Shown here: in pieces, positions 29,381 to 54,319 of the stretch
How the letters are laid out: each line of letters opens with the position of its first letter
Numbering within the stretch: the stretch's first letter is position 1
Assembly: GCA_002345745.1 (NCBI GenBank)
Contig: DDWQ01000003.1
Coordinates: 6,028-70,027, forward strand
Length of the DNA stretch: 64,000 nucleotides
Direction: 5' to 3'
Source of the DNA: Candidatus Moranbacteria bacterium UBA2282
Lineage (GTDB): Bacteria > Patescibacteriota > Minisyncoccia > Moranbacterales > UBA2206
Notes under the pieces: generated by a model
What the model was told of the DNA's origin: nothing
Database searches by the model: none
Seen by the model: only the letters and a program-made list of their open reading frames with translations
Translations under genes and position numbers: made by a program

Positions 29381-29439
29381 AGTAGTTTATGTAAATAGAT
29401 TATTTAAATATATATTAAGTTATTGTTTATTATATAGTA

Positions 29440-31440: not shown

Positions 31441-31459
31441 TTAATTTTAACTTTCAACA

Positions 31460-31813: not shown

Positions 31814-31826
31814 ATAAAATAAACTA

Positions 31827-32588: not shown

Positions 32589-32613
32589 AGATTATCAACT
32601 AAGGTTTAAATAT

Positions 32614-33108
32614 ATGGAACAGAAACAAGAAGACCTAGAGGAAATAGTAAAAGAAACTGTAAGCGAGTTGTTGGAAAAGCTTGGTTTTAAATGTGAAATT
32701 GAGGTTACGAGAGAAATTGAAGAAGAATCTAATGAAGCGAGAGAAGTTGTTGTGTGTAACATTAAAACAGAAGAATCAAATTTTCTAATCGGACAATATG
32801 GTGTTAATCTTCAATCATTGCAACACATCGCTAGAATGTTAGTGCGTAAAAAAACTGAAGATAGAGCCAATTTTATTTTAGATGTGAATTTTTATCGCAA
32901 AGAAAAAAATTCGTCCATAGTTTCCTTAGCTAAAAATATTGCACAGCAAGTAGTAACTGAAAAAAGAGCGATTATTCTTCGCCCAATGTCACCGTATGAG
33001 CGTAGATTGGTGCATATGGAACTTTCAAAAAATACAGACGTTATTACTGAAAGTATTGGTGAAGGTGAAGATCGTAAAGTTATAGTTAAGCCGGTAGAGG
33101 CAAATTAA
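32614..33108 (+). CDS. jag: Jag/KhpB-like RNA-binding protein (KH + R3H domains)
   Basis: C-terminal R3H motif YERRLVHMELSKNTDVITESIGEGEDRKVIVKP; position after yidC. Start set at MEQKQED. Confidence 0.8.
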   Translation: MEQKQEDLEEIVKETVSELLEKLGFKCEIEVTREIEEESNEAREVVVCNIKTEESNFLIGQYGVNLQSLQHIARMLVRKKTEDRANFILDVNFYRKEKNSSIVSLAKNIAQQVVTEKRAIILRPMSPYERRLVHMELSKNTDVITESIGEGEDRKVIVKPVEAN

Positions 33109-38670: not shown

Positions 38671-39819
38671 CTAGAGCGAAAGCTGATAGAGTTTTCCATC
38701 AATTCTGTTTACAAAAAACAAACTACTTTCATCCGGACTTAAAAATAATTCTGTTGCATCATAGGCTTGATCTATTTTGTCTAGGGTAATTATGCGAGTT
38801 TTTTCACCAGTAGTAACATCAACTTTCCAAAATGTATCACTGGTGTTGAATTTTGCATCATTATAATCATTGGGCATTGTTGCACCAGCAGGAATTGAAC
38901 TAGGTAGTGCATAATAAATAGTGGTGTTGTTTTTTGACCAAGCACATTTAGAAACCATTGTTGGAATGCCAAGCGTTTTATATTCTCCACCAACGCTGTT
39001 CATAACACTAAGTTGCAGTTTTGTTACATCTGTTGTTTCTATGCTGCTTTCAAGTAAAAAACTGCCATCAGAACTCCATAAATAGTCAGCTCCAAATTTA
39101 CCTTGAGTAATTGTTTTTATTTCTTCACCAAAAACTGGCACAGACGACATAGTCGCTTGTGTAAGGGAATCTGGCTTATTCCAAAAAGAAACCAAGCCCG
39201 TTTTTGGAATAATAGCAACACGAGCATCGCCATTAGGCAGGGTGATTATTTTTTTCCAATTAGAGCCATCCGGATCAGCGACATTAAGCGTTTGTTTATC
39301 TGTTGTTGACTTGGAATATTTATAAATAATTTTATTGTTGTTTTGCCAAATAAGATCAGCTATGCCATCTGCCAGTCCAACATTTTTGTTTTGCAGATAA
39401 TCATAAGAAGAAAATTTGGAGGATAAACTATCTTTTGGAAAACGGGAAACAACCTTGTTTGTGTCTGGCGACCAAATAATATCGGATAAATTTAGGAGTT
39501 CTGCCGAAGAAAGTGTTTTTTTGTTGTGGCTCAATATATCAACTTCAAAAGCATTGCCAGTTGCTTTTGCATAATATTTTATAGAATCACCAGTCGGAGA
39601 AATTATTGGTGCTAAAATAGGTTCATCTGTCAGTGCTGTAATCGTGGCATTTTTTGAAATTATTGGTTGCTCAGAAGGTTTTTCCGAGGTTGTTGTTGCT
39701 ATCTCTGAATCACTTGATGAAGGTGTTTGTTTGAAAGAAAGCAAATAAACCCCCCAAAGAAGCAGGATAACAATAAGTGCAATGGTGGAGGTGATAAAAA
39801 TTTTTTTAGGTAAGGACAT
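38671..39819 (-). CDS. Membrane-anchored extracytoplasmic protein, beta-propeller-like (TolB/PD40-like repeats?); last gene of the T4SS-like operon
   Basis: N-terminal TM IFITSTIALIVILLLWGVYLL; repeated WSPD/LSPD-type motifs. Assignment is weak. Confidence 0.4.
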   Translation of the reverse strand: MSLPKKIFITSTIALIVILLLWGVYLLSFKQTPSSSDSEIATTTSEKPSEQPIISKNATITALTDEPILAPIISPTGDSIKYYAKATGNAFEVDILSHNKKTLSSAELLNLSDIIWSPDTNKVVSRFPKDSLSSKFSSYDYLQNKNVGLADGIADLIWQNNNKIIYKYSKSTTDKQTLNVADPDGSNWKKIITLPNGDARVAIIPKTGLVSFWNKPDSLTQATMSSVPVFGEEIKTITQGKFGADYLWSSDGSFLLESSIETTDVTKLQLSVMNSVGGEYKTLGIPTMVSKCAWSKNNTTIYYALPSSIPAGATMPNDYNDAKFNTSDTFWKVDVTTGEKTRIITLDKIDQAYDATELFLSPDESSLFFVNRIDGKLYQLSL

Positions 39820-39840
39820 CTTTTATGGGCTGAATAATAA

Positions 39841-40536
39841 TTAAGTTTTTTTGATAAATTTTTTGTAAATAATCCAGAGAAGAGCAAAGAAGAACACTAT
39901 TATGATAATGATTATTATCACGGAATAAGATGATGTTGTGATTTGTGAGACAGGTTGTTGGACAGGTTGTGGAGTAGATTGTGTAAGTAAAATTTGTCCA
40001 GTAACAGGGTCTTTTATGACGCCACTATTTTTATTAAGCAGATCAGTCGTTTGCTGGCTGTATTCTGGTTTGCTGGTTGCGCAATCCCCTAGGCAATTTT
40101 GCGCCGTTTCACCTTTTTCGTATTCGCATATACCATTGCCATTGCAAACGGAAAATTTAGACAGATCAGTGTTCAGCAACTCTTTGTTGCCTAATTTTTC
40201 CAACACCTTAAGTTCGGTGGCCAAACTAAAATAAGGTATGTTTAGATTGAAAGCACCATCTTGTTTATTAAATTCGGTTGAAACAATCTTTTTTCCGTCT
40301 GCCTCATAAAGTTCCAATATAAATTCACCAGATGTTTTATTTTGTGCAAATTCAACGATGGAAATGTCTTTAGTGGTGTCATGAATAACATTTTCCGGAA
40401 CAGATTTATCAAAAGACAATGTGTTGGTTTTTGCAGCGTAGTAAAAGTATATCGTAAAAGCATCTGAAGCTTTGGATATTAATGGAGAGGCAAACAATGC
40501 AATTGTTATTGCAAAGAGGATGATTTTTTTCTTCAT
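39841..40536 (-). CDS. Secreted protein with N-terminal signal peptide and C-terminal TM anchor
   Basis: Signal MKKKIILFAITIALFASPLISKA; C-terminal hydrophobic IIIIIIIVFFFALLWIIY followed by KKFIKKT. Confidence 0.45.
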   Translation of the reverse strand: MKKKIILFAITIALFASPLISKASDAFTIYFYYAAKTNTLSFDKSVPENVIHDTTKDISIVEFAQNKTSGEFILELYEADGKKIVSTEFNKQDGAFNLNIPYFSLATELKVLEKLGNKELLNTDLSKFSVCNGNGICEYEKGETAQNCLGDCATSKPEYSQQTTDLLNKNSGVIKDPVTGQILLTQSTPQPVQQPVSQITTSSYSVIIIIIIIVFFFALLWIIYKKFIKKT

Positions 40537-40542
40537 ATTTTT

Positions 40543-41370
40543 TTATAAGCTAGCATAAGAATTTAAAACCCGAGTACAATAATTATCAGTGGTTTTAGCA
40601 CAATTATTAGGCTTGCCAGAATTATAACAAGACGCAACTTGTTGGATATCAGTCATTGGACAACGACTATTGTTGCTTTTGATGAGCCAAGCCGCACAAT
40701 TAGCATCTAGTTGTGGATCATTTTGAATTGCTAGACAGCTAGTCGTGGCATCGCCTGGGATGCCACAAGCTGTTCTTATCGCGGGCAAGGCTTGGGAATA
40801 TCCGCAGGAACCATAACCATCTGTCGATAAGCTTTTATTGCAACCTTCACCACCATCTATTATAGCCTTTAGAGTTTTTGGATCTACACCAGAAGAATTG
40901 TTATTAATCGCGTCATTCATACTACTACATTTAGAGTCTGTAACGGGTGCTCCAGTTGGGGTTGTGGGAGTTGTTATAGGAACTGGTTGAGTGGCAATAG
41001 TAGCAACAGTCCCGCTATCTAACCGAACTAAATTTGGGTTGATTTCATATAGCAACAAATAGGAAATCAATGCTAATATCAAACCAATAATAGCATCAGT
41101 AATAACTGCCTTAGATTTGTCGACGCTGGCAACGTTGGCAGCTGAAGAAATATACATATAACCGCCAATAGTGATCATCAGCAAAGCCGAAACTCCAACA
41201 CCCCAAATGCCAAATTTATAAACAGCAGCAATGTAATTGTAAAAATTACCATCCGTTGCAAAACCAGGAATTTGTTCCATCGGAGTATAACTAAAAGAAG
41301 CTGCCCAAGTTATTACGGGTAGGAACAAAAATAAAAAAATAGCGATGGTTAATATTTTTTTTGTATTCAT
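40543..41370 (-). CDS. TrbC/VirB2-like pilin-topology protein (signal peptide + two TM helices) with a Cys-rich C-terminal extracellular domain
   Basis: Signal peptide, then IWGVGVSALLMITIGGYMYI and AIIGLILALISYLLLYEI hydrophobic hairpin as in T4SS pilins. The C-terminal ~150 aa contain 14 Cys. Assigned from topology only. Confidence 0.4.
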   Translation of the reverse strand: MNTKKILTIAIFLFLFLPVITWAASFSYTPMEQIPGFATDGNFYNYIAAVYKFGIWGVGVSALLMITIGGYMYISSAANVASVDKSKAVITDAIIGLILALISYLLLYEINPNLVRLDSGTVATIATQPVPITTPTTPTGAPVTDSKCSSMNDAINNNSSGVDPKTLKAIIDGGEGCNKSLSTDGYGSCGYSQALPAIRTACGIPGDATTSCLAIQNDPQLDANCAAWLIKSNNSRCPMTDIQQVASCYNSGKPNNCAKTTDNYCTRVLNSYASL

Positions 41371-41408
41371 TTTGTACAGATTATTGATAATATAAGTATA
41401 GCACAGTT

Positions 41409-44168
41409 TTAAATTTGTTTTTGTTCGGGGAAAAGTGAAAACAAAGTGCGAACCAAGAAGAGAATCAATAACATTGTTAGTGCGATGCGGAAAAGAAAGT
41501 TAATGTAGCTTGGTATGGCAGAAAATAAACTAGCGAGAATTTTTTGTTGCGGATTTTTATTTTGACCCGTAATAATTGCTGTACCACTAAGATTATTCAC
41601 CATTTTAATTTCAATTGTTTGTGAAATAGATTTTTCATAAAAATTAGTTTGAGGAACTTTCCAAATAGTGAAGAGTGCTTTCTTAACTAAATTTGGTTGA
41701 GTGTAAAGTGCACTAAGAGTAATGTCATATTTTTCTCCTACAGGCTTATTGGCAGTGAATACAAGTGTGCCATTAGCTTCAATCGCAGTGATTCCAAGGG
41801 AAGCCATATTGTCGGTGGTTACTTGGATGCCATCAAAAATCCACGAGGCATTGTCTCCAGGAATGAGTGTATTGGAAGATGATTTTATTTTAACAACTTC
41901 GCCTGACAAAGCTTCAAATTTATCAAGGCTAAAATCTGGCCAGGCACTAGAAGTCATACCAGAAACTGGATTAGGATTAACATTGATTGGATCAATATAA
42001 TAGCCTAATAGAGTTGGCGCACAGGTATCTGTAGTGGTAGAGGTTATGAATATTGCTGGGTCAACTACACGAAATGTTTTAGATAAAATTATTTTCTCTC
42101 CCGTTGTTTTATTAAGAGCCTCTAATGATAATATATGTTGAGAATCTCTTCCTCCCAAGATTGGAATATAGGCGATGTTCTGTTTGGTTTCAGTAAGAGG
42201 TGCATTATCAAAAGACCATAAAAAATCATAACCAGATGGATTGGCAATATCAACCTTAACTCCAATTATCTCATTTTTTACGACTGGACAGATAGCAGAC
42301 TCTATTCCAACATTGCAACGCTCAGTAGCGTTATTTAAACCAAGAGTTAGACTGTCAGAAACGCTGGCCGAAAAAACCTTAATAGCACTCGATGATAACT
42401 GAATTGGAATAATGATAGTTCCGACACCCTCTTTTTTTCCTTCGATTGCTCGGAGGATAATTTTAGCATAAAAAGTTTTTTGGTTAGATTTTAATGCAGG
42501 AAGACTAGCTTTAAAATTCAAATTCATTTTAAGAGAATCAATACCGATGCCAGACAATTTTTTTAAACCAGTTTGGGATTCTAATTGTGCTAATGTCAAC
42601 ATTTTCCAATCCTTATCTTCGGCTGCAATATCCGAACTAAGATATATTTGCCAAGCATATTTCAAAAAAGACTTATTCTCCACCCCCATAATAGAAGACT
42701 GAACAATCAATTGATCGGCACTATCTGCAGATTCAGAATTCATTGGTGATTTGGGTTGATAAGACAAGGAAACTTCCATTTTTTCATCAGAGTTTCCTTC
42801 GCTAGGTTCGATGAAGCCGTCTAGAAGAGTGGTGTTGACGTCTTCGATAGTAATATTTGCTTCTGTTTCATCACTCATTCTTCCTACGAAGTCACCGCAT
42901 TCTCCACCTGCTATACAGACAGTGCAACTTTCAGAATGATCGCCACTAAGAAGAACAACTAGATGTGGAGGAAAAGCTTCATTATCAGAAAGAGGTTTCC
43001 AAAGAAAACTAGCTCCCCCTGCACCTTCCTCATAGCGAGTGGCTCCATCAGGAATGCTGTGGGATTCTACTGTGCCTGAGCAAGTCACATTAACCGTAAC
43101 AGGTCCTCCATAGGAACTACCAGGCTGGGAAAAACTATATACTAATCTATCATCCGTAGAACCACTATCCTCCTCCGATTTAATCTCTGGATTTCCACTA
43201 ATAGCCCATGTAATTTTATAGGAAGAGTCATCATAATTAGTTGATTCTACTGAAATTCCTTCCACTGCAACACCAATTTCGTCACCCGTTACATAATTCC
43301 AAGTAAGTGTGTTTCTTCCGAATCCAGCAACAGCGGCCTCATCCATCACCCCGCTATTGGTAGTGTCTTTTGAATTTGGGTTCGTGTGCCAAAATTCTTC
43401 TTCATTCAAATTAAATTTGCCGTCGCCAGTTTCTTCGTCAGGTGCGTTTGGAAATAAATGGTTTTCACATTTAATTTCAGTTTCATTGCCAGTTGCAACG
43501 TGGTGGACATAACAATGATTGGCTTTCCCTTTTTGGTCATCACCACCAAAAGAAGCCTCATACCCATCACCATCAGCAGGATCTTTCGCCACCTTGTATT
43601 GATTAGGCGCATTGCAATAATCAAGATTTGGTTGATCATCACAAATTGGAGCATCTTTTCCCATCGCTCTTTGCCAATCAAAATCACCACTAGCAACAAG
43701 ACGCATAGCTTCAATTTTATAATCCTCAATATCAACATTATCATCATTGTTTAAATCGCAACGAGAAACATAATCTGTATTATATCCATCATCACCTTTG
43801 TCGATAGTTTTGCAGTAACCACGTTTCAAATACCAACCGTAATAGAGAAGCGCGGGATCATTCATAAAATATGTAGCACTAGCTGAGGCAGTAATTTGCA
43901 TCCCTGGGACAGGACTGCTAGGTGTAAAGGTTAGTTTCACTTGGGGTGGGGTTTTTTTCTGACGAGCGACATTTACGTATTGAACAGTTTCTTTAAGTGC
44001 AGTTTGATCGACTCCGAAATAACTCATCATATCACTGAGTGCCTTTTCGGTAACGGCTGCCGATATCGGATCTAGACCTACCATTTCAGCATAAATAGCC
44101 GGTGCTCCCGAGGAAAAAATAATAGTCGAGATGAATAATAGTATAAGTGATTTTCGCAAAAAATTCAT
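41409..44168 (-). CDS. Large (919 aa) secreted surface protein with C-terminal TM anchor; T4SS-operon-encoded putative adhesin or surface component
   Basis: N-terminal signal peptide, Cys-rich segments, C-terminal TM INFLFRIALTMLLILFLVRTLF. Confidence 0.5.
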   Translation of the reverse strand: MNFLRKSLILLFISTIIFSSGAPAIYAEMVGLDPISAAVTEKALSDMMSYFGVDQTALKETVQYVNVARQKKTPPQVKLTFTPSSPVPGMQITASASATYFMNDPALLYYGWYLKRGYCKTIDKGDDGYNTDYVSRCDLNNDDNVDIEDYKIEAMRLVASGDFDWQRAMGKDAPICDDQPNLDYCNAPNQYKVAKDPADGDGYEASFGGDDQKGKANHCYVHHVATGNETEIKCENHLFPNAPDEETGDGKFNLNEEEFWHTNPNSKDTTNSGVMDEAAVAGFGRNTLTWNYVTGDEIGVAVEGISVESTNYDDSSYKITWAISGNPEIKSEEDSGSTDDRLVYSFSQPGSSYGGPVTVNVTCSGTVESHSIPDGATRYEEGAGGASFLWKPLSDNEAFPPHLVVLLSGDHSESCTVCIAGGECGDFVGRMSDETEANITIEDVNTTLLDGFIEPSEGNSDEKMEVSLSYQPKSPMNSESADSADQLIVQSSIMGVENKSFLKYAWQIYLSSDIAAEDKDWKMLTLAQLESQTGLKKLSGIGIDSLKMNLNFKASLPALKSNQKTFYAKIILRAIEGKKEGVGTIIIPIQLSSSAIKVFSASVSDSLTLGLNNATERCNVGIESAICPVVKNEIIGVKVDIANPSGYDFLWSFDNAPLTETKQNIAYIPILGGRDSQHILSLEALNKTTGEKIILSKTFRVVDPAIFITSTTTDTCAPTLLGYYIDPINVNPNPVSGMTSSAWPDFSLDKFEALSGEVVKIKSSSNTLIPGDNASWIFDGIQVTTDNMASLGITAIEANGTLVFTANKPVGEKYDITLSALYTQPNLVKKALFTIWKVPQTNFYEKSISQTIEIKMVNNLSGTAIITGQNKNPQQKILASLFSAIPSYINFLFRIALTMLLILFLVRTLFSLFPEQKQI

Positions 44169-44172
44169 AGAA

Positions 44173-44832
44173 TTACTTAAATAAATAAATTATATAGGTG
44201 TCTAGGATTATTAAAAAAAATAAACTCATTAAATAGGAATATAAAAAAGAGCGACTTTTGTAGGTGACGACTCCTCCCGTGAAGGATAATATTATAAGAG
44301 GAGCTAATTTCCAGGTTAGATCGTTGGTAAATAGCAGAAAAAAGGTAAAAATTAAAGCTTGTATAATAGCTACTGCAAAGCCAAATTTTTCAGAAAATAA
44401 AAATAAAATAAAACCTTTGAAAAAAAACTCTTGTATGAATAAAAGAATATTTACCAAAATAAGTTCATATAATAAAAATATGCCAAAATTTTGGGCTAGA
44501 TAGGCTGGAAGCAGATATTTGTTTTCAAAATCAAAAAAATGTATCAGAATAAAAATTATTAGTGCTGATACAAAAAACATTCCAATTGCCCAGATAATGC
44601 CAATTTTTGTGTTTTGCAGATTGAAACCAAAATTACGCAAATCTTTTTTCAGAATAAGTTTTATATATAGAATTGGCAGGAGAAAAAAGAAAAATAAATT
44701 AAGACTGAATTTTTGTGAAATGTCTTGGGTTGGAAAAAAAATAATCAGCAACAAACAAGCCAAAATGACAACGGAGCTGATTAGTTCTGTTTTCCAAGCG
44801 GAAATAAATTGTTTTGCTTTTTCTTGTGTCAT
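44173..44832 (-). CDS. Polytopic membrane protein (possible degenerate CPBP-like)
   Basis: Six or more TM helices. QEFFFKGF weakly resembles CPBP motif 1 (EExxxRG); other CPBP motifs are not found. Confidence 0.35.
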   Translation of the reverse strand: MTQEKAKQFISAWKTELISSVVILACLLLIIFFPTQDISQKFSLNLFFFFLLPILYIKLILKKDLRNFGFNLQNTKIGIIWAIGMFFVSALIIFILIHFFDFENKYLLPAYLAQNFGIFLLYELILVNILLFIQEFFFKGFILFLFSEKFGFAVAIIQALIFTFFLLFTNDLTWKLAPLIILSFTGGVVTYKSRSFLYSYLMSLFFLIILDTYIIYLFK

Positions 44833-44841
44833 TTTTTTGTA

Positions 44842-45426
44842 TTAAGCAGGTGTTGCATCTGCAATGCTTTGATTGATTGCTTGTGTTTGTGCATTTTTAA
44901 CAGCGACAGCTTCTTTTGCTTTTTCTGCATTTAATTTTCTTTCTTCCAAGGTCATTTTAAAAATAAAATAAACAGAAATAGCCTCTAGGGGCATTAGGTC
45001 TATGATAGGAATAATTTCTACGAGAGTCATTCCAGCTAAAAGCAAAAGTTTTCGCAATAGTGGACTAATTTTTATTTTAGCTTTTCCAGCTTTTGTTCGA
45101 GCTTCTTTAGTTTTGCTATAAGATCCAGTTAAAAATATGGTTATAATAATTACTGCGGAAGCCATCAAGGTAAAAATGAAAATTAGCACAGCGCCAATGC
45201 CACCAGCAGCAATTAAAGCTGTGTTGACAATATCTAGAATATCTTTGAGTAGGGCTGCCATAAAAGCGATAGCAAACAACCAATCCAGAAAAGGATTAAT
45301 CTGTGCCATAAGCGATACTGCACCTATGGTTGTCTTGGCACCTTTTTTAATCTGACTCACTGACTTTTTCAATGTGCCTGCACGGGAGGTTTTTAAATTG
45401 TTGGCATGATCTTGTTGATTAGCCAT
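44842..45426 (-). CDS. T4SS-associated membrane protein (3 TM)
   Basis: Hydrophobic segments; located immediately downstream of virB4. Confidence 0.4.
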   Translation of the reverse strand: MANQQDHANNLKTSRAGTLKKSVSQIKKGAKTTIGAVSLMAQINPFLDWLFAIAFMAALLKDILDIVNTALIAAGGIGAVLIFIFTLMASAVIIITIFLTGSYSKTKEARTKAGKAKIKISPLLRKLLLLAGMTLVEIIPIIDLMPLEAISVYFIFKMTLEERKLNAEKAKEAVAVKNAQTQAINQSIADATPA

Positions 45427-45461
45427 AATACGTATTAGACTTATTAAGTAACAAGTCTATT

Positions 45462-47300
45462 TTACATCTCATCTTCTTCAAAATCTTTTTTGGCTTGCTC
45501 TATTTCTAGCAGTTGTGAAGGGTCGGTCGTGATAATCTGGTCTTCACTATAGGAGGCAACGACTTTGATGGCGACGTGTTTGGTGCCAGCAAAGAAAATT
45601 CCCTCTCCCACATTACTTTCTAGTAACAAAAATTTTTCTTGGTCAGTCAGATAGAATGTATCAGTGATAACATCAATAGCGGCTGGAGATTGTTTGAGCA
45701 AAAGCTGAATTGATGAATTGGTTACAATCGGTTTGCCATAACGAGATGAAAGAAAATCATTAACATCTTGCGTGATGGTTGTAAGTCCAGTATAGTATTT
45801 TCTGCAACGTTTTGCAATTCCAAAAAGGAAAGAAGCAGCGTCATCAGACTTCATCATTACCCAAGCTTCATCTACTAAAACCATACGACGCTTAACATTG
45901 GTACGCATCTCATTCCAAATAAATTGTAAGATAATATACATTGCTACGGGTCGCAGGTCATCTTCCATATCGCGAATATTAAAAACGACTAGTTTATTGT
46001 CAACTTTAATATTGGTAGTGCTATTAAGAAAGCCGGCAAAAATTCCTTCAGTATATTTTTCTAGTCGTATAGCTAAATTTTCACCACCGTCCATATTACG
46101 CAAAACTTGATGCAAATCTGCCATCGTTGGATACGCTTCTTTGGTCAGGGAATTAAAATCAGTCTTTCCGTTAATATCGCGAATATCATATGTTTCATGC
46201 ACGGCTCGATCAAGAATAGAATCCTCTTCTGGTGTAATATTACCCAGCATCAAATGCAAAAGACCTAATAAACTCGCAATATTATTGCGTAGAATATCCT
46301 CTGGATCATCATCATCACCTACCATCGGAAGATCAAATGGGTTTAAATGATTTCTTGAGTTAAGGGATATTTTAATGAAAGACCCATCAACGGTATCACA
46401 GAGATGTTTATATTCATTCTCTGGATCAATAATAATAACATCTGTTCCAATCATAAGGGAGCGTAAAACTTCTAGTTTTACGGCATAGCTTTTTCCACTT
46501 CCTGATTTGGCAAAAACCACCATATTAGCATTTTCCATTTTGAAACGATCAAAAAGAATTAAGCTATTATTGTGCCTATTGATGCCATATAAAATACCTT
46601 CATCATTAGAGAGAGTCGAGGAAACAAAGGGAAATGTTGTTGAAAGTGGGGCAGAATTCATATTTGTGCCAACATTTAATTCATCGTTTGCGAGGGGAAT
46701 AGTTGAATTGAATCCTTGCTCGGTTTTAAAAATAGCTGGTTTGATATAAACCAATTGTGCTTCTAGAATTGATTCAATACTGCGGGTAGTTTTGTCTAGC
46801 TCAGACTCAGTTTGACCATAAACAGTTACATATAAACCAAAACGAAAGAACTTTTCTGTTCCTTGTTGTAATTTATCGCGAAGTTCATCGATATCTTGCA
46901 TAGCTGTTTCCAACGCTGGGTCGCGAATCAGTCCCTTTTCTTGCTCAATATGCAGTTGGGATTGAACTTGTGTAGCACTTTTTCGCAAAGTCTTGAGGAT
47001 GTCGTATGTTTCAATAGGGTGAATAAACATAGAAATATCAATAGACATATCGATATTTATGATTGGAGAAAACCAATTACTATTCAAATAACGCGGATAG
47101 GAAATAACAAAAATAGTTCGTGCCAGCGTTTCGCCAAGTTGAATTGATTTAGGTAGGATTTTTATGGCCGCCGGCGCTAAAAGATCTTGTAATTTAGCAA
47201 TACCTTCTTGATAGTTTTTTTCAGATTGCATAAAATCATCAAGTTGTTCTTGACTTTGTGGTTGTTGTCCAGTATTTTTTTTATGCAGAAAATCAAACAT
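45462..47300 (-). CDS. virB4: VirB4/TrbE/TcpF-family T4SS ATPase, C-terminal ATPase part
   Basis: Walker A VVFAKSGSGKSYAV, Walker B RMVLVDEAWVMM, and the CagE/TrbE/VirB4-like region upstream. Confidence 0.85.
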   Translation of the reverse strand: MFDFLHKKNTGQQPQSQEQLDDFMQSEKNYQEGIAKLQDLLAPAAIKILPKSIQLGETLARTIFVISYPRYLNSNWFSPIINIDMSIDISMFIHPIETYDILKTLRKSATQVQSQLHIEQEKGLIRDPALETAMQDIDELRDKLQQGTEKFFRFGLYVTVYGQTESELDKTTRSIESILEAQLVYIKPAIFKTEQGFNSTIPLANDELNVGTNMNSAPLSTTFPFVSSTLSNDEGILYGINRHNNSLILFDRFKMENANMVVFAKSGSGKSYAVKLEVLRSLMIGTDVIIIDPENEYKHLCDTVDGSFIKISLNSRNHLNPFDLPMVGDDDDPEDILRNNIASLLGLLHLMLGNITPEEDSILDRAVHETYDIRDINGKTDFNSLTKEAYPTMADLHQVLRNMDGGENLAIRLEKYTEGIFAGFLNSTTNIKVDNKLVVFNIRDMEDDLRPVAMYIILQFIWNEMRTNVKRRMVLVDEAWVMMKSDDAASFLFGIAKRCRKYYTGLTTITQDVNDFLSSRYGKPIVTNSSIQLLLKQSPAAIDVITDTFYLTDQEKFLLLESNVGEGIFFAGTKHVAIKVVASYSEDQIITTDPSQLLEIEQAKKDFEEDEM

Positions 47301-47986
47301 TATTTTAATTCTAGATTGTTAATATCTCCAATCGTAGTATCCATAAAAAGATTAGGATTGTAGGAATTGTAAATTAATTCAATAAGCTCTTGAGTTCCTA
47401 GCATCGTCATACGCGTGCCAATTCCAGATAGTGCGGCTTCAATGTGGTCAGCTCTTTGCAGTAGTTGGTTTTTGTAGGTTTCAAAATTTTCTCTTTTTTG
47501 CATAATATCTTTGCGGGCATTGTTTCTGCTAAAAAGATTACCCAAAAAGCTTTTTTCTGTATTCTCGACGGGGGCAAAAGGCACAATTATATAAAAACTT
47601 TTATCCATTATATTTGAGACGGAAACTAATTGACGGATGAAATTTTTATATTCAGCAGTTTGCAGACGCAGAAGTTCATTAGTTTGTTCTTTTTCCTTTT
47701 TTTCAACAAACTCCATATATTTATTAACATTCATTTTTCGCGAACTGATGAGGATTTGAATCGGAAAGTCGAGGGAGTTTAGAAAATTTTGATATTGGGC
47801 AATAATTGCTTCTTGCTCATCGCTAGATTTTAGATCAAAATTAATAGCTGATACGGCAAGGATGGCTCGCAATGAACCATTTTTAAGAACAATAACATCT
47901 TCTTCAATTTCGGCAATATCAAGAAACTGCTGAGTAGCAGAGGTCGTTGTTTGTTTGGTTATTTTACTTGAATTTAATGATTCCAT
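47300..47986 (-). CDS. VirB4 N-terminal domain encoded as a separate ORF (split virB4), translationally coupled (TAATG overlap)
   Basis: LKNGSLRAILAVSAINFDLKSSDEQEAIIAQYQNFLNSL resembles the N-terminus of Gram-positive VirB4 homologues (TcpF/PrgJ/Orf16: ..DG....L.V..INF.L.S..E...I). Its stop shares one nucleotide with the ATG of the ATPase ORF. Confidence 0.55.
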   Translation of the reverse strand: MESLNSSKITKQTTTSATQQFLDIAEIEEDVIVLKNGSLRAILAVSAINFDLKSSDEQEAIIAQYQNFLNSLDFPIQILISSRKMNVNKYMEFVEKKEKEQTNELLRLQTAEYKNFIRQLVSVSNIMDKSFYIIVPFAPVENTEKSFLGNLFSRNNARKDIMQKRENFETYKNQLLQRADHIEAALSGIGTRMTMLGTQELIELIYNSYNPNLFMDTTIGDINNLELK

Positions 47987-48387
47987 TATCTTTTATTTAT
48001 CTCTAATAGTTTTGATATTTCTTCAATTTTTTGGCTAGAAAGTTCTTTTTTGGAAATTGCTGGAACAGTTTTTTTAACAGAGGATTTAACAGTGCTTATC
48101 TGGTCAGGCAATCTTTTCCACATATATATCTTTGGCTTGGTGAAAAAAGAAATAGCGGAAAGGATAAACATTATTAGTGGTTGGCTATGCGGTCGATAGA
48201 AAGCCAGGGCACCGAAAAGTATCGATAGTATGATGGCGATGACAATAAAGGCGGAGGTATCTAGAAAGCTCCAACAGAAAAGAAGAATAACACCATCCAG
48301 AGCCAACCAACCTAATTGCTTTGCAGTTAGCGGACCGACAATTTTGTCTTCAATATCAATAAATTGTGGGACGTTGAATAGGGACAT
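47986..48387 (-). CDS. VirB3/PrgI/TcpE-like small two-TM membrane protein
   Basis: 133 aa with two TM helices, directly upstream of virB4 as in Gram-positive T4SS loci; N-terminus FNVPQFIDIEDKIVGPLTAKQLGWL. Confidence 0.5.
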   Translation of the reverse strand: MSLFNVPQFIDIEDKIVGPLTAKQLGWLALDGVILLFCWSFLDTSAFIVIAIILSILFGALAFYRPHSQPLIMFILSAISFFTKPKIYMWKRLPDQISTVKSSVKKTVPAISKKELSSQKIEEISKLLEINKR

Positions 48388-48466
48388 AATGAATTTTTAT
48401 TTGGTGTTTATATATGTTTCATTCATAAAGTCAGTGTAATCATTTTAATCAGGGATAATCAGTGGT

Positions 48467-49804
48467 TCAGATATCTTTCAAGTTTACCACATTTTTGCCA
48501 AAAGTTTTTTTGATTGGCATATTGGTGCTTATTTGTGGTCTATTAACGGCTGGGATAAATTTTTGGGGTTGTGTTTGTTCCTTGTTTGTTCTTTCATAGG
48601 ACAACTTTTGTGGTGATGAGAAACTTATTTTATTGGCGGACAATGGATACTGATGTAGAGACAGATCTGATTCTTCTATTTTCTCAAGATGAGCTCTCAA
48701 AGGTTCTTGAGAAGATTCCATAGATTGATTTCTATCGTTTGTAGAAACAATGCTTGTTTTTTGAATATCTTGATTTTCATTTTTGTTTGAAATCGCGGTT
48801 ATTTGTGTGTTAAAAACTATTTGTTGTGCATTTGTGTCAATATCAATTGGCAAATCTAGATCTAATGATTTTAAAATAATTGCCAATCGTTGCCTTTCTG
48901 TATTGGAAAGTCTTTTGGTGTTTTCACTATTGAATAAGTAGCTTCCACGATTCATTTCTGAATGAGCACCTTGCCCATATATTTGATGGTAGTCTGCGAG
49001 CCAGTTTTTTATAGATGGTCGGACTGGAGAGGAAGAATATTGTAATTTGAGAGGTTGAGATGTGATTAGCTGTTCTCCGAGTTTATCAAATTTATGTAGA
49101 CCTTCGGAAAGAAGGATTTGAATTGTTTTGTGAGTAGCAGGCTTCATTTCAGGTTGAATGGGTGATGTGCTTATATCTTTACTTGGTTCATTGACGTTGT
49201 AAATGGAGTTGTTTCCAATTTCTGATTGAATGAGTACTTTTCCAGCAGATGTTGGTGTGAATGCAAGCACGTTGTCATATGTATGCAATAAATCTTTAAC
49301 TTGATTTTTTTCATTAGAATTTAGTGTGGATGCTTGTGTATTGGTGGAAATAAATTCTATTGGAGCTGAGTCAGTTCGAGTTTTGGTTGGAAAAAGCTTT
49401 TCAAAATTAGTTATCCATTGACTGATAGATAGATTTCCAATTTTTTGTTGATTTTCCAAAATTGCTCGACGAAGTTTTTTACGTAAATTATCGCGTGGTA
49501 TTTCAGGGATAAGAAAGAGTTTTCCGGTAAGTTGATTTTCCATTGAAATTTGCATATGGAAAGATTCTAAATAGTGATTGCGTAAAATGTCAGCCACTTC
49601 TTCATCAGAAATTTGGGATAAGGCTACGATTTTGAGGTTTACAATAGCACTTTGTAGTTTTTTAAATAATTCTGGATTAGAATTTTTAATATCTTGAGAT
49701 TCAATGAATGTGCTTATTTCTTTTAGAGTTTTGCGTGCTTCAACATCATCAATGTGATTGATGGCAAAATGATAGTTAGCTGTGATTTCTTTGATATCTA
49801 ACAT
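48467..49804 (-). CDS. Hypothetical soluble protein (445 aa) of the T4SS-like operon
   Basis: ORF with operon context only; no recognised motif. Confidence 0.45.
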   Translation of the reverse strand: MLDIKEITANYHFAINHIDDVEARKTLKEISTFIESQDIKNSNPELFKKLQSAIVNLKIVALSQISDEEVADILRNHYLESFHMQISMENQLTGKLFLIPEIPRDNLRKKLRRAILENQQKIGNLSISQWITNFEKLFPTKTRTDSAPIEFISTNTQASTLNSNEKNQVKDLLHTYDNVLAFTPTSAGKVLIQSEIGNNSIYNVNEPSKDISTSPIQPEMKPATHKTIQILLSEGLHKFDKLGEQLITSQPLKLQYSSSPVRPSIKNWLADYHQIYGQGAHSEMNRGSYLFNSENTKRLSNTERQRLAIILKSLDLDLPIDIDTNAQQIVFNTQITAISNKNENQDIQKTSIVSTNDRNQSMESSQEPLRAHLEKIEESDLSLHQYPLSANKISFSSPQKLSYERTNKEQTQPQKFIPAVNRPQISTNMPIKKTFGKNVVNLKDI

Positions 49805-49817
49805 TTGAGTTTATATT

Positions 49818-52010
49818 TTAGGGAGTACCTCCTCCACCTGCAGGAGCACCACTTGCAGCAGTAGCCGTAGCTGCGGCAGCAATACCAGCAATACCACGAC
49901 GCTCCCTTAGTTTATTAATGAAGGCAGTTATATTAGCACTTTGTTCAGGCGTAACATCTGGTCCAGTAGCATATGTTTCCATGTTTGCTAAGTTTGCATC
50001 GCTGGCCAAGTTTTTTATGAAATCTGGTCTAACTCTACTTAGAACATCAACTTCTTGTTGAGAAACATTGCGTAATTGAGCCAGTCCGATCGCATGTAAT
50101 CCTCCAGCACGACTTCCATCCGTTAGATTGCCATTAGTATCTCGATTTGGAATTTCTGTAAGAAATGAATTCCAATGCCAGGTGTCAGCCTTGGTTTGAA
50201 CTTTAATATTGTTAGCCTTGCCAATTGCTGCTGCTGCTTGATCAGGATCTTCATTTTTTTGATATTTTTGTTTTTTAACATTCCAACTGGCCATAGCATA
50301 ATTGGCAAAATTTCCCTTGGAGTTTGCGATTTCACCCAGATCAGCCATTTGACGCAGTGCCTCTTGCTCATTCATGCCACCTTCCGTAAATTGTTTAAGT
50401 ATGTAATTTTTCATAGCAAAAGGATCGACATCTTGATTATTAAGCTTCATAAATTCATTTTGGTCATTATTATTAAACATAATGCGCAAAACGGCAGACA
50501 TTTTTTCAGTGTCTTTCGCTACTTTGGCTTTGGTAAATTCATCTACTAAAATTTCAGATTCACTAGCAAATTCAGATAATTCTTTTTGTTTTTTGAGCAC
50601 GTTAGTTTGAATAGCTGCTTGTTGGTTTCTAGTTTTATCTTTGCCAAGACTGAACGCTGAATTCCAGCGATCATGCCAGATGCCAGTTGATTCTTCCAGT
50701 GCTTTTCTTTCGGATTCTGCAGATTGTTTTTTCCAACCAGAGATAATTCCTCGAGGACGTAAACCCTTTGGTATAACATTTCTTTCAAAAGCCTTGAGTC
50801 CTGCAATGGCAGCATATTTTGCACCAGACTTCACACCACCACCCATCATTCTCGGCAACCAAGTACTAGCTTTTTGTGCAGCACCCATAACTGTGCTGGC
50901 GCCCTCAATCCCCATCTTCTGTGCAATGCCCATTCCCATCCACAAAATGACAATCGGGATAGCCATATTTGCCATAGAGGTTATGACACTGTCTTGCTGG
51001 GCGAGCTCAAATGATTCGCCGATAGCCGTCATTGTGAAAATAGCGATATGCAAAACAAAAACCATAATCGGTCCAAAAAAAGAATATTTGATTATATTAT
51101 CCCACCAGCCGAAATCTTTGCCGGCGATGTTACCAACGAAAGCTACGGGTGAAATTATAATCAAAATAGCTAGTGCAACGATTCTCACTAAAAATAGAAC
51201 AGCTAGAGCTAGAAATGTGACAGCTAGTAGAAAAGTAAAAAATATAGCGGCAAAAAGTTGCGGGTAGGAGGCATCAGTATTGGTTTGAAGAATATTTTTG
51301 ATGTCCCCTCCAGTAGTTATTCCAGTTAAAATGGAAGTTGGATCTGTAGCTGAATTTGGAAAAAATTGCGTAAGCATAGTGTACATCAAGGAGTTAGAAA
51401 TATCTACAATGAAGCGGGCGATGGGAAAACTAAAATTGACCAACAGCGCCATCAAAACAATTGTCAGAATTATTTTTTTCTCACCAAATTTGCCTCCAAT
51501 TTGAAAAATGATAGAAAAAGCGGAATAGAGCAGAAAGAGAATGAAAGCGATGTTGAGAAAATCACGCACTTCCATCCAGACTGTGTAGAGTGCTGGACTT
51601 GCCACAACATCTTGCAATTTTTTAGCATCAACAACAACGCCAAACAGTGCTGCTGATGCACCAAGCAACATACCATTGAATTTAAGAATGCCTACAAGAA
51701 GACAACTACCATTTGCAATGTCTCCTATACCGCATCCGAGAATAGTGCCTCCCTCAGTATTTACCTGCTGTGGAGTTTTGCCTGCCTTGCTAGGGTCAAT
51801 AGCTCGAACTTCTATTGCCTTTGTATTATCAATAGGACCAGCTGAAGACGGCAGGCTGGAAAGCCCTGTTGGATTAAATGTAGTTGGTTCTGCAGCATTT
51901 GCTGTGGGAGTGTTGGATATTTGCAGATTAATTAAACCACCAAAAACAATCATAAAAATGATAATGGCAGAAAAAAAACTAGCGACTTTTTTTTGAAATT
52001 TGTTTTTCAA
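49818..52010 (-). CDS. VirB6/TrbL-like polytopic membrane protein with a long hydrophilic C-terminal extension
   Basis: N-terminal signal/TM, central block of ~6-7 TM helices, C-terminal ~350 aa soluble region ending in an Ala/Gly-rich tail. Confidence 0.55.
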   Translation of the reverse strand: MKNKFQKKVASFFSAIIIFMIVFGGLINLQISNTPTANAAEPTTFNPTGLSSLPSSAGPIDNTKAIEVRAIDPSKAGKTPQQVNTEGGTILGCGIGDIANGSCLLVGILKFNGMLLGASAALFGVVVDAKKLQDVVASPALYTVWMEVRDFLNIAFILFLLYSAFSIIFQIGGKFGEKKIILTIVLMALLVNFSFPIARFIVDISNSLMYTMLTQFFPNSATDPTSILTGITTGGDIKNILQTNTDASYPQLFAAIFFTFLLAVTFLALAVLFLVRIVALAILIIISPVAFVGNIAGKDFGWWDNIIKYSFFGPIMVFVLHIAIFTMTAIGESFELAQQDSVITSMANMAIPIVILWMGMGIAQKMGIEGASTVMGAAQKASTWLPRMMGGGVKSGAKYAAIAGLKAFERNVIPKGLRPRGIISGWKKQSAESERKALEESTGIWHDRWNSAFSLGKDKTRNQQAAIQTNVLKKQKELSEFASESEILVDEFTKAKVAKDTEKMSAVLRIMFNNNDQNEFMKLNNQDVDPFAMKNYILKQFTEGGMNEQEALRQMADLGEIANSKGNFANYAMASWNVKKQKYQKNEDPDQAAAAIGKANNIKVQTKADTWHWNSFLTEIPNRDTNGNLTDGSRAGGLHAIGLAQLRNVSQQEVDVLSRVRPDFIKNLASDANLANMETYATGPDVTPEQSANITAFINKLRERRGIAGIAAAATATAASGAPAGGGGTP

Positions 52011-52034
52011 TTTTTTGACTATATTTTTAAAAAA

Positions 52035-53090
52035 TCAGTTTTTAAATAATGAACCGATGCCACTTTGGGAAGCTTGGGTGTTGAGTCCGGACATAGCTTT
52101 GTCTGTCGTATTTTGTGCAGAAGACTTTGCCTGTCCAATTCCATATTGAATAGTATTGGTAATCAATGATTGTACAGTCGCTGTTATTATTTCTCCGGGA
52201 TTTGTAGCTGTGGCTAGTGTTGTATACGCAGTATTTAAAGCATTAGAAACGGCATCTTTAGTAATAATCCCTGGTGTGACAACTTTATCACCCGCTTCAG
52301 CAAATCCGGAACCAGCTTGAGCCTTATTTTCTGCTTTTTTTGTTTCTTCTGTTAGGAGCCTATCATAAGTTCTTTGTGCATTGATGGCATAGTCCCATTG
52401 ATCATTTATACCAGAATAAGATAATTGCAAGTTTGCAAAATTATTACTAGCATCAGCAATATCTTCTCCATTGTAAGTAATTGTGGGTTCTTTTCTTTCG
52501 CTAGTGAGAGCTTTGCCCATTTCTTGAAGTTCAAATGCATTGGTTGCTGCTGACCTATAGACATCAAGGTCAGAAGCTGCTTGGGCAAAATAAGAAAACT
52601 TGCCATAGCTAGGATTATTCATTGCTAGACCATAATTGAAAGACCCTTTGCCAAAACCTTCATAGTTGTCTGCAAGGAGACTGGCGGAAGCCGCGGAGAT
52701 ATAACCTGAAGCAGAACCTCTTCCCTGACTGATTGTTTGGCTTAGATAATCATTCATCAAAATATTAGCAGATTCTTTTGGTTGGTTTACTAAAAAATCT
52801 TGCCAATTTACGATAAATTTAGCAGATTGAGAGGAAGATCCACCGACAATATCCCCCAATGCACTATTAATTGCTTTGATTGCTGCTGTCTTTAAGCCAC
52901 CTCTAATCATTCCCTGCAGGGAAGCTGTCAGTTGCTCTTCGAGAGTTTTATAAATTTGTGCTGGAAATTCCCCCCACAAAGCCTGTGCTTTTGGAGCGTT
53001 GATTGGAGTAATAGTTAAAGAAAAAAGCAAAAACAAAGCAAGAATAATTGTTTTTGATTTGGAATAATTAAGTTTTTTTAAAAAATTCAT
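52035..53090 (-). CDS. Secreted hypothetical protein (signal peptide) of the T4SS-like operon
   Basis: Signal peptide IILALFLLFSLTITPINAPKAQA. Confidence 0.45.
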   Translation of the reverse strand: MNFLKKLNYSKSKTIILALFLLFSLTITPINAPKAQALWGEFPAQIYKTLEEQLTASLQGMIRGGLKTAAIKAINSALGDIVGGSSSQSAKFIVNWQDFLVNQPKESANILMNDYLSQTISQGRGSASGYISAASASLLADNYEGFGKGSFNYGLAMNNPSYGKFSYFAQAASDLDVYRSAATNAFELQEMGKALTSERKEPTITYNGEDIADASNNFANLQLSYSGINDQWDYAINAQRTYDRLLTEETKKAENKAQAGSGFAEAGDKVVTPGIITKDAVSNALNTAYTTLATATNPGEIITATVQSLITNTIQYGIGQAKSSAQNTTDKAMSGLNTQASQSGIGSLFKN

Positions 53091-53091
53091 T

Positions 53092-54126
53092 TTATTGAGA
53101 TAATTTTTGAACTAGGTCGTCGCTTGGCAGATCCATCCCATAGGAACTCAGTTTGTTTTGCAGAGAATCATCAAAGGTCAAGTCATAGGAATCAATTTTT
53201 GCTGTCATATCATCTGAAAATGCAGAAGCATAGCTCATAAAGCCTAATACTTTAGAAAAATTAGCAATACTTGTGAGTGGGTCTGTCGGATTGGGTGCAA
53301 AAAGAGTGTTGAGATTTTGTGCATATTCAGTTATTTGCAATGCTTCAATATGCAAATCAGCCAAATCTTCTGGCACGGGGATGCTTTTCATCTGTTCTAT
53401 AATTTTTTGGTCAGTAGCAAGAATGTCTGCGATGGCTTTCGGATCTTGCGATGTAATGGCTGTTGTAAAACTCTGAGTAATGGAATTAGAAAGCGTTGAA
53501 ATGTCAGAAGTTGAGGTGACGGGAGTTGGTGAGTTGCTAGACAGCACATAGGAAACTCCCACAATATAATCAGTGAGATCATCTTTTTTTGCTGCTGTGA
53601 TTTGCTCGTCATTTAAACCTTTAAAATCGTCTTGTTTAATGATGATGTCATCTTTCGTGACTACTGGCATTTCATCTGAAGAAACTTGAGTATTGAGGGA
53701 ATCATCGACTAGTGAATTGACTTGTTCTAGGGTAACATCTTTGTTGGCAGGATCACTGCTACTGAGCATAGTCGCTATTTTTTGGGTAACATTAATAGTA
53801 AGGTTTTCTTGTGCAGAATCTACAGGTGTTTCTGTAGTTGCATTTGCAATGGTCGGAATTATTTTATCACCAGGTGACGGTTTGGTGGGATCATAGCCAG
53901 ATTGAACTTCAGCTCCATCGGAATAACCATCGCCATCACTATCTGCTTTTTGTGGATCAGTACCATAGGTTGTTTCTTCCGCATCAGAAAGACCATCTTG
54001 GTCGTTATCAAGAAAAATGTTTTTAGTTGTTGTCGCTTGTTCTTGTGCCGTTGCAAAAAAAGAAAAGCTTGCAATAACTAGCGCAAATAAAACTATTAAA
54101 GATAATTGAATTTTTTTTATTTTCAT
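53092..54126 (-). CDS. Secreted protein with thrombospondin-type-3-like Ca-binding Asp-rich repeats; first gene of the operon
   Basis: Signal peptide MKIKKIQLSLIVLFALVIASFSFFATA, then DNDQDGLSDAEETTYGTDPQKADSDGDGYSDGAEVQSGYDP (DxDxDG repeats). Confidence 0.5.
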   Translation of the reverse strand: MKIKKIQLSLIVLFALVIASFSFFATAQEQATTTKNIFLDNDQDGLSDAEETTYGTDPQKADSDGDGYSDGAEVQSGYDPTKPSPGDKIIPTIANATTETPVDSAQENLTINVTQKIATMLSSSDPANKDVTLEQVNSLVDDSLNTQVSSDEMPVVTKDDIIIKQDDFKGLNDEQITAAKKDDLTDYIVGVSYVLSSNSPTPVTSTSDISTLSNSITQSFTTAITSQDPKAIADILATDQKIIEQMKSIPVPEDLADLHIEALQITEYAQNLNTLFAPNPTDPLTSIANFSKVLGFMSYASAFSDDMTAKIDSYDLTFDDSLQNKLSSYGMDLPSDDLVQKLSQ

Positions 54127-54319
54127 TTCGTATACGAAAAACGCATTAGGACAACACACATTCAAATAGTCGTAAGAGATTATTATTAACTCAGTACACT
54201 AAAATTATACCATAAAAAAACAAGTTTGATAAAGGTCTGTTGGCTGTGTATAACTTTTTGAGTTATTTTATTGCAAAACATTAGTTGCTAAAAAGTAGTA
54301 AGACTGATAAATTAGAAAT

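Follow-up and report, generated by a model that had tools for sequence, protein, structure and literature searches.

Does a tightly packed run of secretion genes in the genome of Candidatus Moranbacteria bacterium UBA2282 belong to a conjugative element, or is it a resident machine of the chromosome? The run occupies positions 38671-54165, on the minus strand, of the 64,000-nucleotide stretch of contig DDWQ01000003.1 that we analysed (the window). An initial annotation had read it as a co-directional operon for a chromosomal, non-conjugative type IV secretion system (T4SS). This operon is real, and its interpretation is supported by the parts list, by conserved synteny and by the lack of a relaxase or type IV coupling protein (T4CP) in about 79 kb. 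We consider it very probable that the locus is a chromosomal, vertically inherited Patescibacteria-type T4SS of Candidatus Moranbacteria (Parcubacteria/Paceibacteria), which descends from the MPF-FATA class of mating-pair formation (MPF) systems and is no longer conjugative. We describe here its parts list, its gene order, its conservation across species and its native chromosomal context near the replication origin (oriC). We stress that the system itself was described between 2023 and 2025; the same conclusion, whose novelty the initial annotation had implied, is already published (PMC10633639, PMC12102498, PMC12857230), and the Moranbacteria copy is a new example. What it adds is a VirB4 apparently divided into two complementary halves (o6 and o7), a predicted fusion of a pilin to an SLT domain, a linked CPBP-family protease and surface proteins that seem restricted to Moranbacteria.

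The operon comprises 13 open reading frames (ORFs), all on the minus strand and numbered o1 to o13 in the direction of transcription. The evidence for its identity begins with o7 (45462..47300, 612 residues), which matches the NCBIfam model for CD1110-family VirB4 proteins, NF045971, at 2.1e-111 and 373.5 bits (cut-off 325) over model positions 173-734 of 752. It also matches the Pfam TraG P-loop family (1.1e-33) and AAA_10, and the profile of its family finds in the PDB the Thermoanaerobacter VirB4 4ag5 at 3.8e-59 and R388 TrwK at 8e-4 only. Across 29 orthologues the Lys and Ser of the Walker A motif KSGxGKS and the Asp-Glu of Walker B are invariant, and o7 is on these grounds a VirB4-family ATPase core with intact Walker A and B motifs. 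The place of o7 in the CD1110 model, the rank of 4ag5 as best solved relative and the adjoining PrgI and TrsD-like genes together support a core of the Gram-positive (MPF-FATA) type.

Absent from the initial annotation was the division of this VirB4 between two overlapping genes. The preceding gene, o6 (47300..47986, 228 residues), shares a 1-nt overlap with o5 and another with o7. Its NCBIfam matches, all of which score under the curated cut-offs, fall solely within the N-terminal regions of VirB4 models (positions 92-233 of NF045975 at 1.2e-9, 2-119 of NF045971 at 1e-6 and 6-175 of TIGR00929 at 5e-6), with a further match to the TrsD model NF041427 (2.3e-7, 30.9 bits, cut-off 200). Because o7 lacks the N-terminus of the model and o6 matches, by NCBIfam coordinates, VirB4 N-terminal parts, the two are predicted to cover complementary parts of a split VirB4, o6 being the TrsD-like counterpart of the detached N-terminal domain. 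The split recurs in 46 of 46 full-length loci, with o6 orthologues in 79 loci, and is therefore not a sequencing frameshift. We rejected paralogy between o6 and the N-terminal part of o7, as hhalign found no similarity of o6 to o7.

Upstream of this pair lies o5 (47986..48387, 133 residues), a PrgI/VirB3-like protein that passes the Pfam PrgI model at 3.2e-10 (40.9 bits, cut-off 27) and has two transmembrane (TM) segments by TM scan. It adjoins the virB4 cluster in all 46 full-length loci, the next two ORFs downstream encoding the TrsD-like protein and VirB4. The 730-residue product of o3 (49818..52010) consists of about six to seven TM segments followed by a hydrophilic C-terminal extension of about 370 residues (TM scan). 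A direct Pfam hmmscan of the window copy gave no match, and a weak match to TrbL_3 (PF19590) is on record for this protein. Its full-length relatives (family profile E <1e-140) pass Pfam PF04610, TrbL/VirB6, with 26.8-35.4 bits at a cut-off of 25.9 (P0099 35.4 bits, P0092 32.0 bits). At family level this supports o3 as a VirB6/TrbL homologue, and the protein corresponds to what the 2025 FEMS review (PMC12857230) terms an 'extended VirB6'.

The pilin candidate is o11 (40543..41370, 275 residues), which has a signal peptide, two TM helices and the conserved motif GG.MY.TSAGN...K.K...DA. Among 23 members of its family, 19 match Pfam PF18895, T4SS_pilin (best 1.7e-18), eight match SLT and two SLT_3; the window copy itself is under the Pfam threshold for both T4SS_pilin and SLT. 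Against the PDB the family profile finds MltC (9e-6), Slt70 (4e-4) and also EmtA, and the C-terminal domain of the window copy is linked to the SLT-positive orthologues by phmmer (1e-7, first round) and by jackhmmer (17 members). Because the orthologues match both T4SS_pilin and SLT, and the window C-terminal domain links to them, o11 is a predicted fusion of a VirB2-like pilin to a divergent, VirB1-like lytic transglycosylase domain. The orthologues that pass Pfam SLT carry the motifs E-S, G(L/I)MQ and YN(G/S)G, where the window copy (residues ~165-260) has G-E, GYSQ and YNSG; it also lacks their Cys-rich C-terminal tail. With this family the four core assignments of the initial annotation all hold: the VirB4-family ATPase with intact Walker motifs, the two-TM VirB3/PrgI-like protein, the VirB6-like polytopic protein with its long C-terminal extension and the pilin-like protein of TrbC/VirB2 topology, the last three of which it had named as those whose remote T4SS homology should be checked.

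Two observations on related proteins may be recorded here. Moranbacteria loci of a second group have their pilin gene upstream of prgI; it encodes two tandem pilin domains behind a Cys-rich N-terminal extension, with no SLT domain (L052:7652-8584, L053:7678-8571, L056:7683-8687, L059:7959-8708, L048:52-1080 and L070:4077-5027). To the left of the window, ~1.2-3.2 kb from its start (L083:11948-13954), an SLT domain and faint repeats of FG-GAP type occur in a protein of 668 residues; this is another candidate peptidoglycan cutter, which could serve the T4SS if the SLT-like domain of o11 is inactive.

How widely is this arrangement kept? A VirB4 scan with one genome per species returned 332 relatives, of which the best 80 were taken further; these 80 are 68-90% identical to o7 and come from metagenome-assembled genomes of Moranbacteria, Parcubacteria or Patescibacteria, plus records labelled 'bacterium' or Bdellovibrionales. 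Although some of these labels are uninformative or doubtful, the 80 relatives and the best curated model, that of the monoderm CD1110 VirB4, are consistent with a place for o7 in the Patescibacteria VirB4 clade. The closest relatives of the operon are all Candidatus Moranbacteria. In 46 related loci with full flanks, all from different species, we observed the window order G5-rsmA-ubiA(-)-o1-o2-o3-o4-o5-o6-o7-o8-o9-o10-o11-[variable slot]-o13-wzy(-) about 28 times, and since it recurs so often the run is not due to chance. A second group has the order pilin-o5-o6-o7-o8-comM-G5-rsmA and a third o3-o4-o5-o6-o7-...-o9-o10, and prgI-trsD-virB4 is kept in both of these too. That the synteny with core genes is shared across species speaks for a locus that is chromosomal and kept by vertical descent, and speaks against an integrative conjugative element (ICE). 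Median identity is 78% for VirB4 as against 57% for rsmA and 66-67% for comM; the correlation of VirB4 with rsmA identity is r = -0.08, over an identity range too narrow to inform on vertical inheritance. We also observed that comM-G5-rsmA is linked to virB4 in two arrangements (loci L047-L068): in loci ordered like the window it lies upstream of the operon, and in those of the second group it comes immediately downstream of o8; the linkage may be functional, or just a conserved origin-proximal neighbourhood.

The chromosomal surroundings point the same way as the synteny. As the initial annotation had noted, the core genes rsmA (ksgA, 56067-56894) and comM flank the operon. On its other side lies a block (28226-33108) that begins with dnaN and dnaA on the minus strand (28226-31028) and continues with rnpA, yidC and jag on the plus strand. 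The 430-bp intergenic stretch at 31029-31459 is likely to be the replication origin; the end of the T4SS operon is 7.6 kb from it, and dnaA and dnaN are 7.6-10 kb away. Our search for conjugation genes covered the window ORFs of at least 100 residues together with gene calls in the adjoining 8.6 kb to the right and 6.4 kb to the left, up to the contig end, that is, ~79 kb of the 131.6-kb contig. By Pfam the other window ORFs in this set are housekeeping genes, such as ruvABC, PBP1, trxAB, dnaN, dnaA, rnpA, yidC, polysaccharide genes, lspA and pnp; in the right-hand extension lie genes for PNPase, a HepT/MNT pair, rpsO and uvrD, followed in our listing by a protein with LysM-CHAP and a tyrosine recombinase, and in the left-hand one the SLT/FG-GAP protein and polA. 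In the ~79 kb examined there is no T4CP (VirD4 or TcpA), relaxase, tRNA or element-type integrase, and the tRNA and Rfam scans of the window were both empty. The statement of the initial annotation that VirD4, relaxase and integrase genes are missing nearby thus extends to both flanks, where it had allowed that such genes just outside the window would make the locus an ordinary ICE.

An ordinary ICE, or the remnant of one, that moves DNA between cells is for these reasons very improbable. Its parts do descend from Gram-positive conjugation systems, as the CD1110-family VirB4, PrgI, TrsD-like, VirB6 and SLT components indicate, and there is a tyrosine recombinase ~18 kb from the operon. This is the only recombinase found, a protein of 317 residues with Phage_int_SAM_1 and Phage_integrase domains (L082:1-614, ~72.0-72.6 kb in window coordinates and thus outside the window). 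Its best solved relatives are XerC-like, XerD and XerA, and it is probably a resolvase of chromosome dimers rather than the integrase of an element; moreover, the core genes rsmA, comM, lspA, pnp, rpsO and uvrD lie in between. Against an element stand also the missing relaxase and T4CP, the lack of a tRNA in the window, a base composition without any shift (the GC content of the operon is that of the remaining window), the synteny of the locus and its core-gene flanks in ~28 species-level genomes, and the rarity of relaxases throughout the phylum, where 109 were counted in 3,035 Patescibacteria genomes (PMC12102498).

That survey, by Quinonero-Coronel et al. (2025), found a Patescibacteria VirB4 clade nested in MPF-FATA, with TrsD as the commonest partner of virB4 and with PrgI, VirB6 and VirB2-like pilins; in Paceibacteria it places virB4 close to dnaA, dnaN, rnpA and ksgA and reports VirB1 homologues linked to virB4 (PMC12102498). 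Earlier, Wang et al. (2023) had found a T4SS cluster with pilins and no recognisable coupling protein or relaxase to be essential in the Saccharibacterium Southlakia epibionticum (PMC10633639). A 2025 FEMS review regards the Patescibacteria T4SS as a distinct newcomer to the T4SS superfamily, and as the first T4SS shown to be essential for its own carrier bacterium (PMC12857230). Our locus resembles these Patescibacteria-clade systems (PMC12102498), the SEML1_0006-0019 locus included (PMC10633639), in its VirB4 of MPF-FATA ancestry beside a TrsD homologue and PrgI/VirB3; in having a VirB6 and a VirB2-like pilin (PF18895) within the cluster and a putative VirB1-like hydrolase linked to virB4 as in Paceibacteria; and in its position on the chromosome near dnaA, dnaN, rnpA and ksgA, with no relaxase and no nearby T4CP. 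It differs from them in its single SLT-fused pilin gene, where they have an array of 2-11, and in counting among its conserved operon members a CPBP-family protease, the 919-residue protein with Ig repeats, the TSP3 protein and the membrane-anchored beta-propeller; the saccharibacterial locus has peptidase and lysozyme genes downstream of virB4 instead. Neither CPBP/CAAX, nor 'Moran', nor a pilin fusion is mentioned in the 2025 survey, according to term searches of its text (PMC12102498). The initial annotation drew its comparison with CPR and Saccharibacteria; the organism is a Moranbacterium of the Parcubacteria and not a Saccharibacterium.

More distant relatives share fewer of these traits. 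The trs region of the staphylococcal plasmids pGO1/pSK41, of the MPF-FATA subclass, has a VirB3-like TrsC, TrsD as a remote homologue of the VirB4 N-terminus and a VirB4 ATPase, whereas pGO1 has no VirB6 homologue and MPF-FATA systems no VirB2-type pilins (PMC12102498). VirB4 is split in o6/o7 as it is in the staphylococcal TrsD/TrsE pair; however, pGO1 is a conjugative plasmid and by definition needs a relaxase, an oriT and a coupling protein. The gene order trsC-trsD-trsE is one that we take to match o5-o6-o7. With the T4SS of CTn2/CD1110-family and Tn916-like ICEs of Firmicutes the locus has in common that o7 passes the CD1110 equivalog model, that its closest solved structure, 4ag5, is a Firmicute VirB4, and that there is a VirB6-like protein and a putative cell-wall hydrolase. 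In those ICEs, in contrast, VirB4 is one polypeptide of ~750 residues, while here model positions 1 to ~170 come from a separate gene. Such ICEs have a relaxase, a coupling protein of the TcpA/FtsK-like or VirD4 kind and an integrase; they are not known to encode pilins. Bordetella Ptl, Brucella VirB and H. pylori ComB are, like our locus, chromosomal and non-conjugative and have no coupling protein in the locus (PMC12857230). They differ from it in that no VirB7/9/10-type component was found here and that the ancestry here is MPF-FATA. Ptl, VirB and ComB are MPF-T systems of diderm bacteria, with an outer-membrane core of VirB7/9/10.

From these observations, we hypothesize that o7 and o6 dock on PrgI/VirB3 (o5) and on the extended VirB6 (o3) to form a membrane translocon, and that VirB4 would power the extraction of the VirB2-like pilin (o11) and its polymerisation into a tube or pilus outside the cell. 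Passage of this structure through peptidoglycan, the cell's own or the host's, would be helped by the SLT-like domain that the pilin carries, and o9, as a CPBP-family protease, may process the fusion. Lineage-specific accessories that span the wall or bind the host would be o10 with its Ig repeats, o1 with its TSP3 repeats and the anchored beta-propeller o13, together with o2 and o12. The function of the whole would be contact-dependent exchange of macromolecules with a host cell.

What would be exchanged, and in which direction, is a matter on which published opinion is split between export of effectors and uptake of host material (PMC11665869; bioRxiv 10.64898/2026.06.21.733656). If the locus is a Patescibacteria T4SS, we would put import of host material such as nucleic acids foremost, at somewhat less than an even chance, and export of effector proteins next; a role in adhesion or as a pilus only is unlikely, and DNA conjugation hardly to be expected. 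An uptake machine for DNA or other nucleic acids, like H. pylori ComB or archaeal Ced, that feeds a cell unable to make nucleotides is accordingly a real if tentative possibility, and one that concerns the direction of transport and is compatible with a Patescibacteria-type T4SS. The lack of a nearby coupling protein recalls ComB; comM, a helicase of post-uptake recombination, is linked to virB4 in two locus arrangements, although this may merely mirror the conserved origin-proximal neighbourhood; and o7 shows a weak NCBIfam similarity to CedB (NF041017, 49.7 bits) and CedD (NF053655, 24.1 bits) which, far under the cut-offs of 700 and 600, reflects a shared ATPase fold only. A PNAS perspective proposes the T4SS as a route of nucleotide acquisition (PMC11665869), and a preprint on a cultured relative, OT8, reports tubular structures that reach the host together with acquisition of host RNA (bioRxiv 10.64898/2026.06.21.733656); in our operon, however, no DNA-binding or nuclease component was identified. 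It is also conceivable, though unlikely, that there is no translocation of any substrate and that VirB4 only assembles a VirB2-like filament which, with surface adhesins, grips the host. The wealth of surface proteins (the Ig-repeat stalk o10, TSP3 in o1, the beta-propeller o13, the pilin o11) and the lack of a coupling protein and of a recognisable substrate or effector gene would fit such an organelle, but the extended VirB6 channel subunit is kept and conserved, and for Saccharibacteria it is type IV pili to which attachment and motility have been ascribed, the T4SS being separately essential (PMC10633639, PMC12857230). More doubtful still is a combined scheme, drawn solely from domain fusions and conserved gene linkage, in which Moranbacteria would have an architecture of their own for this T4SS: the pilin-SLT fusion, processed by o9, would let the growing tube carry or release a peptidoglycan-cutting head that breaches the host wall, o10, o1 and o13 would replace wall-spanning parts of VirB8/PrgL type, o4 would replace the coupling protein as substrate gate, and the machine would import host nucleic acids.

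Several points weigh against reading the locus as a working, self-contained Patescibacteria-type T4SS. VirB6, the pilin and the CPBP protease all escape direct detection by Pfam in their window copies and were assigned through the families of their orthologues. In the SLT-like domain of o11 the catalytic Glu is displaced, and as a hydrolase the domain may be inactive or altered. We recognised no VirB8-like component: no ORF has a Pfam, NCBIfam or PDB sequence match of this kind, and the AF2 model of o2, which we considered as VirB5- or VirB8-like and which is the sole VirB8 candidate modelled, is unusable (pLDDT 36). Beyond the ~79 kb examined, the genome could still encode a coupling protein; in Patescibacteria VirD4-like genes are often far from virB4 (PMC12102498). 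Finally, no assignment was reached for o2, o4, o8 and o12, nor for the N-terminal domain of o10.

As to its layout, the operon is an unbroken run of 13 ORFs of at least 60 residues, not the 15 genes first counted, with junctions of -1, -1, 1, 4, 6, 9, 13, 21, 24, 35, 38 and 79 bp. No gap is big enough to leave room for an additional gene. The spacing of 0-40 bp given initially describes nearly all junctions, though not the widest, the 79 bp between o4 and o5. On the left the operon ends with o13, which faces a convergent O-antigen-ligase gene (wzy, 37484-38656, plus strand), and on the right it is bordered by a divergent UbiA-family gene (54320-55963, plus strand). The start of o1 is most likely the ATG at 54126, which yields the 344 residues of the independent JGI and ENA gene calls; the TTG at 54165 marks merely its longest possible ORF. 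Upstream of o1, the divergent intergenic region of 154 bp has as its top-scoring minus-strand promoter-like site TTATCA-17-TATAAT with a TG extension (TGgTATAAT) at 54204..54232 on that strand; such sites are not commoner in the region than in shuffles, and it is by its position alone that this candidate is suggestive.

Among the remaining genes, the accessory families supply concrete candidates for those parts of the machine, wall-spanning or in contact with the host, that are still missing, and could guide structural or genetic work once co-culture of a Parcubacteria member is tractable, the locus being a clean, fully syntenic Parcubacteria T4SS example with a defined parts list and three or four surface proteins that appear lineage-restricted. 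The initial annotation held that most components have no recognisable family, which is overstated, given that 8 of the 13 could be assigned. It was right about the presence of TSP3-like Ca-binding repeats, of a 919-residue protein and of at least six secreted or anchored proteins: by TM scan, six have a segment of signal or anchor type at the N-terminus. Direct Pfam and NCBIfam scans of the window copies of o2, o3, o4, o8, o9, o10, o11, o12 and o13 gave nothing credible, apart from a few stray, weak and irrelevant matches, and PDB profile searches for o6, o3, o10, o2, o4, o8 and o13 gave nothing significant. For o1, o9, o10 and o13 the family attributions come from Pfam counts over pooled multi-family alignments, in which matches were allotted to ORFs by topology and domain type.

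The first gene, o1 (53092..54126), encodes a putatively secreted protein of 344 residues with a signal-like N-terminal segment, bacterial TSP3 repeats (Pfam TSP3_bac, 5.2e-12) and a C-terminal domain without a family; TSP3_bac is matched by 14 members of a mixed scan that holds 15 o1-family sequences. At the far end of the operon, o13 (38671..39819, 382 residues) has an N-terminal membrane anchor and a TolB/PD40-like beta-propeller. In a mixed scan with 23 o13-family sequences, DUF5050 is matched by four members, PD40 by three and eIF2A by one; we attributed these beta-propeller matches to o13, whose family profile finds TolB weakly in the PDB (E 0.12). The largest surface protein, o10 (41409..44168, 919 residues), is modelled confidently by AF2 (pLDDT 87) as a signal peptide, a conserved N-terminal domain of ~270 residues (residues ~60-330), a chain of about six beta-sandwich domains of Ig-like type and, at the C-terminus, a TM helix that would anchor it. 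An exhaustive HMMER search of 1.84 billion proteins found 556 representatives of its family, with lengths of 645-1301 residues among the 150 matches listed. The relatives named in a separate word-index search are 'hypothetical proteins' of Moranbacteria, Parcubacteria or Patescibacteria, and the family appears lineage-restricted.

The polytopic product of o9 (44173..44832, 219 residues) has about seven TM segments (TM scan) and no direct Pfam match in its window copy. In a mixed scan of the o8, o9 and o2 families, 14 members match the Rce1-like family PF02517 (best 5e-8), and we attributed these matches to o9 by topology and by an FFFKGF-type motif, which would make it a CPBP/Rce1-like intramembrane protease-family protein. 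No family match was found by Pfam, NCBIfam or PDB profile search for o8 (44842..45426, 194 residues), a membrane protein with three to four TM segments and a basic cytoplasmic N-terminus (TM scan) that follows virB4 in two locus types. We considered o8 as a second pilin and rejected it, hhalign against the pilin family giving a probability of 2% and the mixed scan one stray PF18895 match. The 351-residue product of o2 (52035..53090), mostly helical and with a signal-like segment that suggests secretion, has no Pfam, NCBIfam or PDB match and nine homologues by word-index search; the same position is kept in ~28 loci at ~30% identity. Always found between virB6 and prgI in related loci, o4 (48467..49804, 445 residues) has no TM segment and no Pfam, NCBIfam or PDB match; it is soluble, presumably cytoplasmic, and has a conserved central domain of ~100 residues. 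Lastly, o12 (39841..40536, 231 residues) is a small surface protein in the variable slot; by TM scan it has a signal peptide and, at its C-terminus, an anchoring TM segment. It has one orthologue only among 80 loci, and in other loci the slot is either unoccupied or filled by additional ORFs of pilin topology.

Elsewhere in the window, the ORF at 62704-64000 (minus strand), which continues in L082:7807-9918, is the C-terminal part of a 703-residue PNPase; a recent preprint ties PNPase and VirB4 to an RNA-feeding lifestyle in the Patescibacteria phylum. At 6373-9405 (plus strand) a protein of 1010 residues carries two complete tandem T2SSE domains of PilB/GspE-like ATPases (Pfam 2.6e-227, two stretches) and looks like two secretion or pilus ATPases fused into one. 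An AbiEi-like antitoxin (weak match) and an AbiEii nucleotidyltransferase toxin form a pair at 14003-15309 (plus strand), which is followed by a 132-residue ORF (15467-15865) and by a protein with a PaaX/Cas2-like domain (16177-16782). The stretch 19710-22822 (plus strand) encodes a 7TM_transglut membrane protein, an ATPgrasp_ST protein with a Zn_protease domain and a RimK-like protein, in that order, and looks like a small peptide-ligase cassette.

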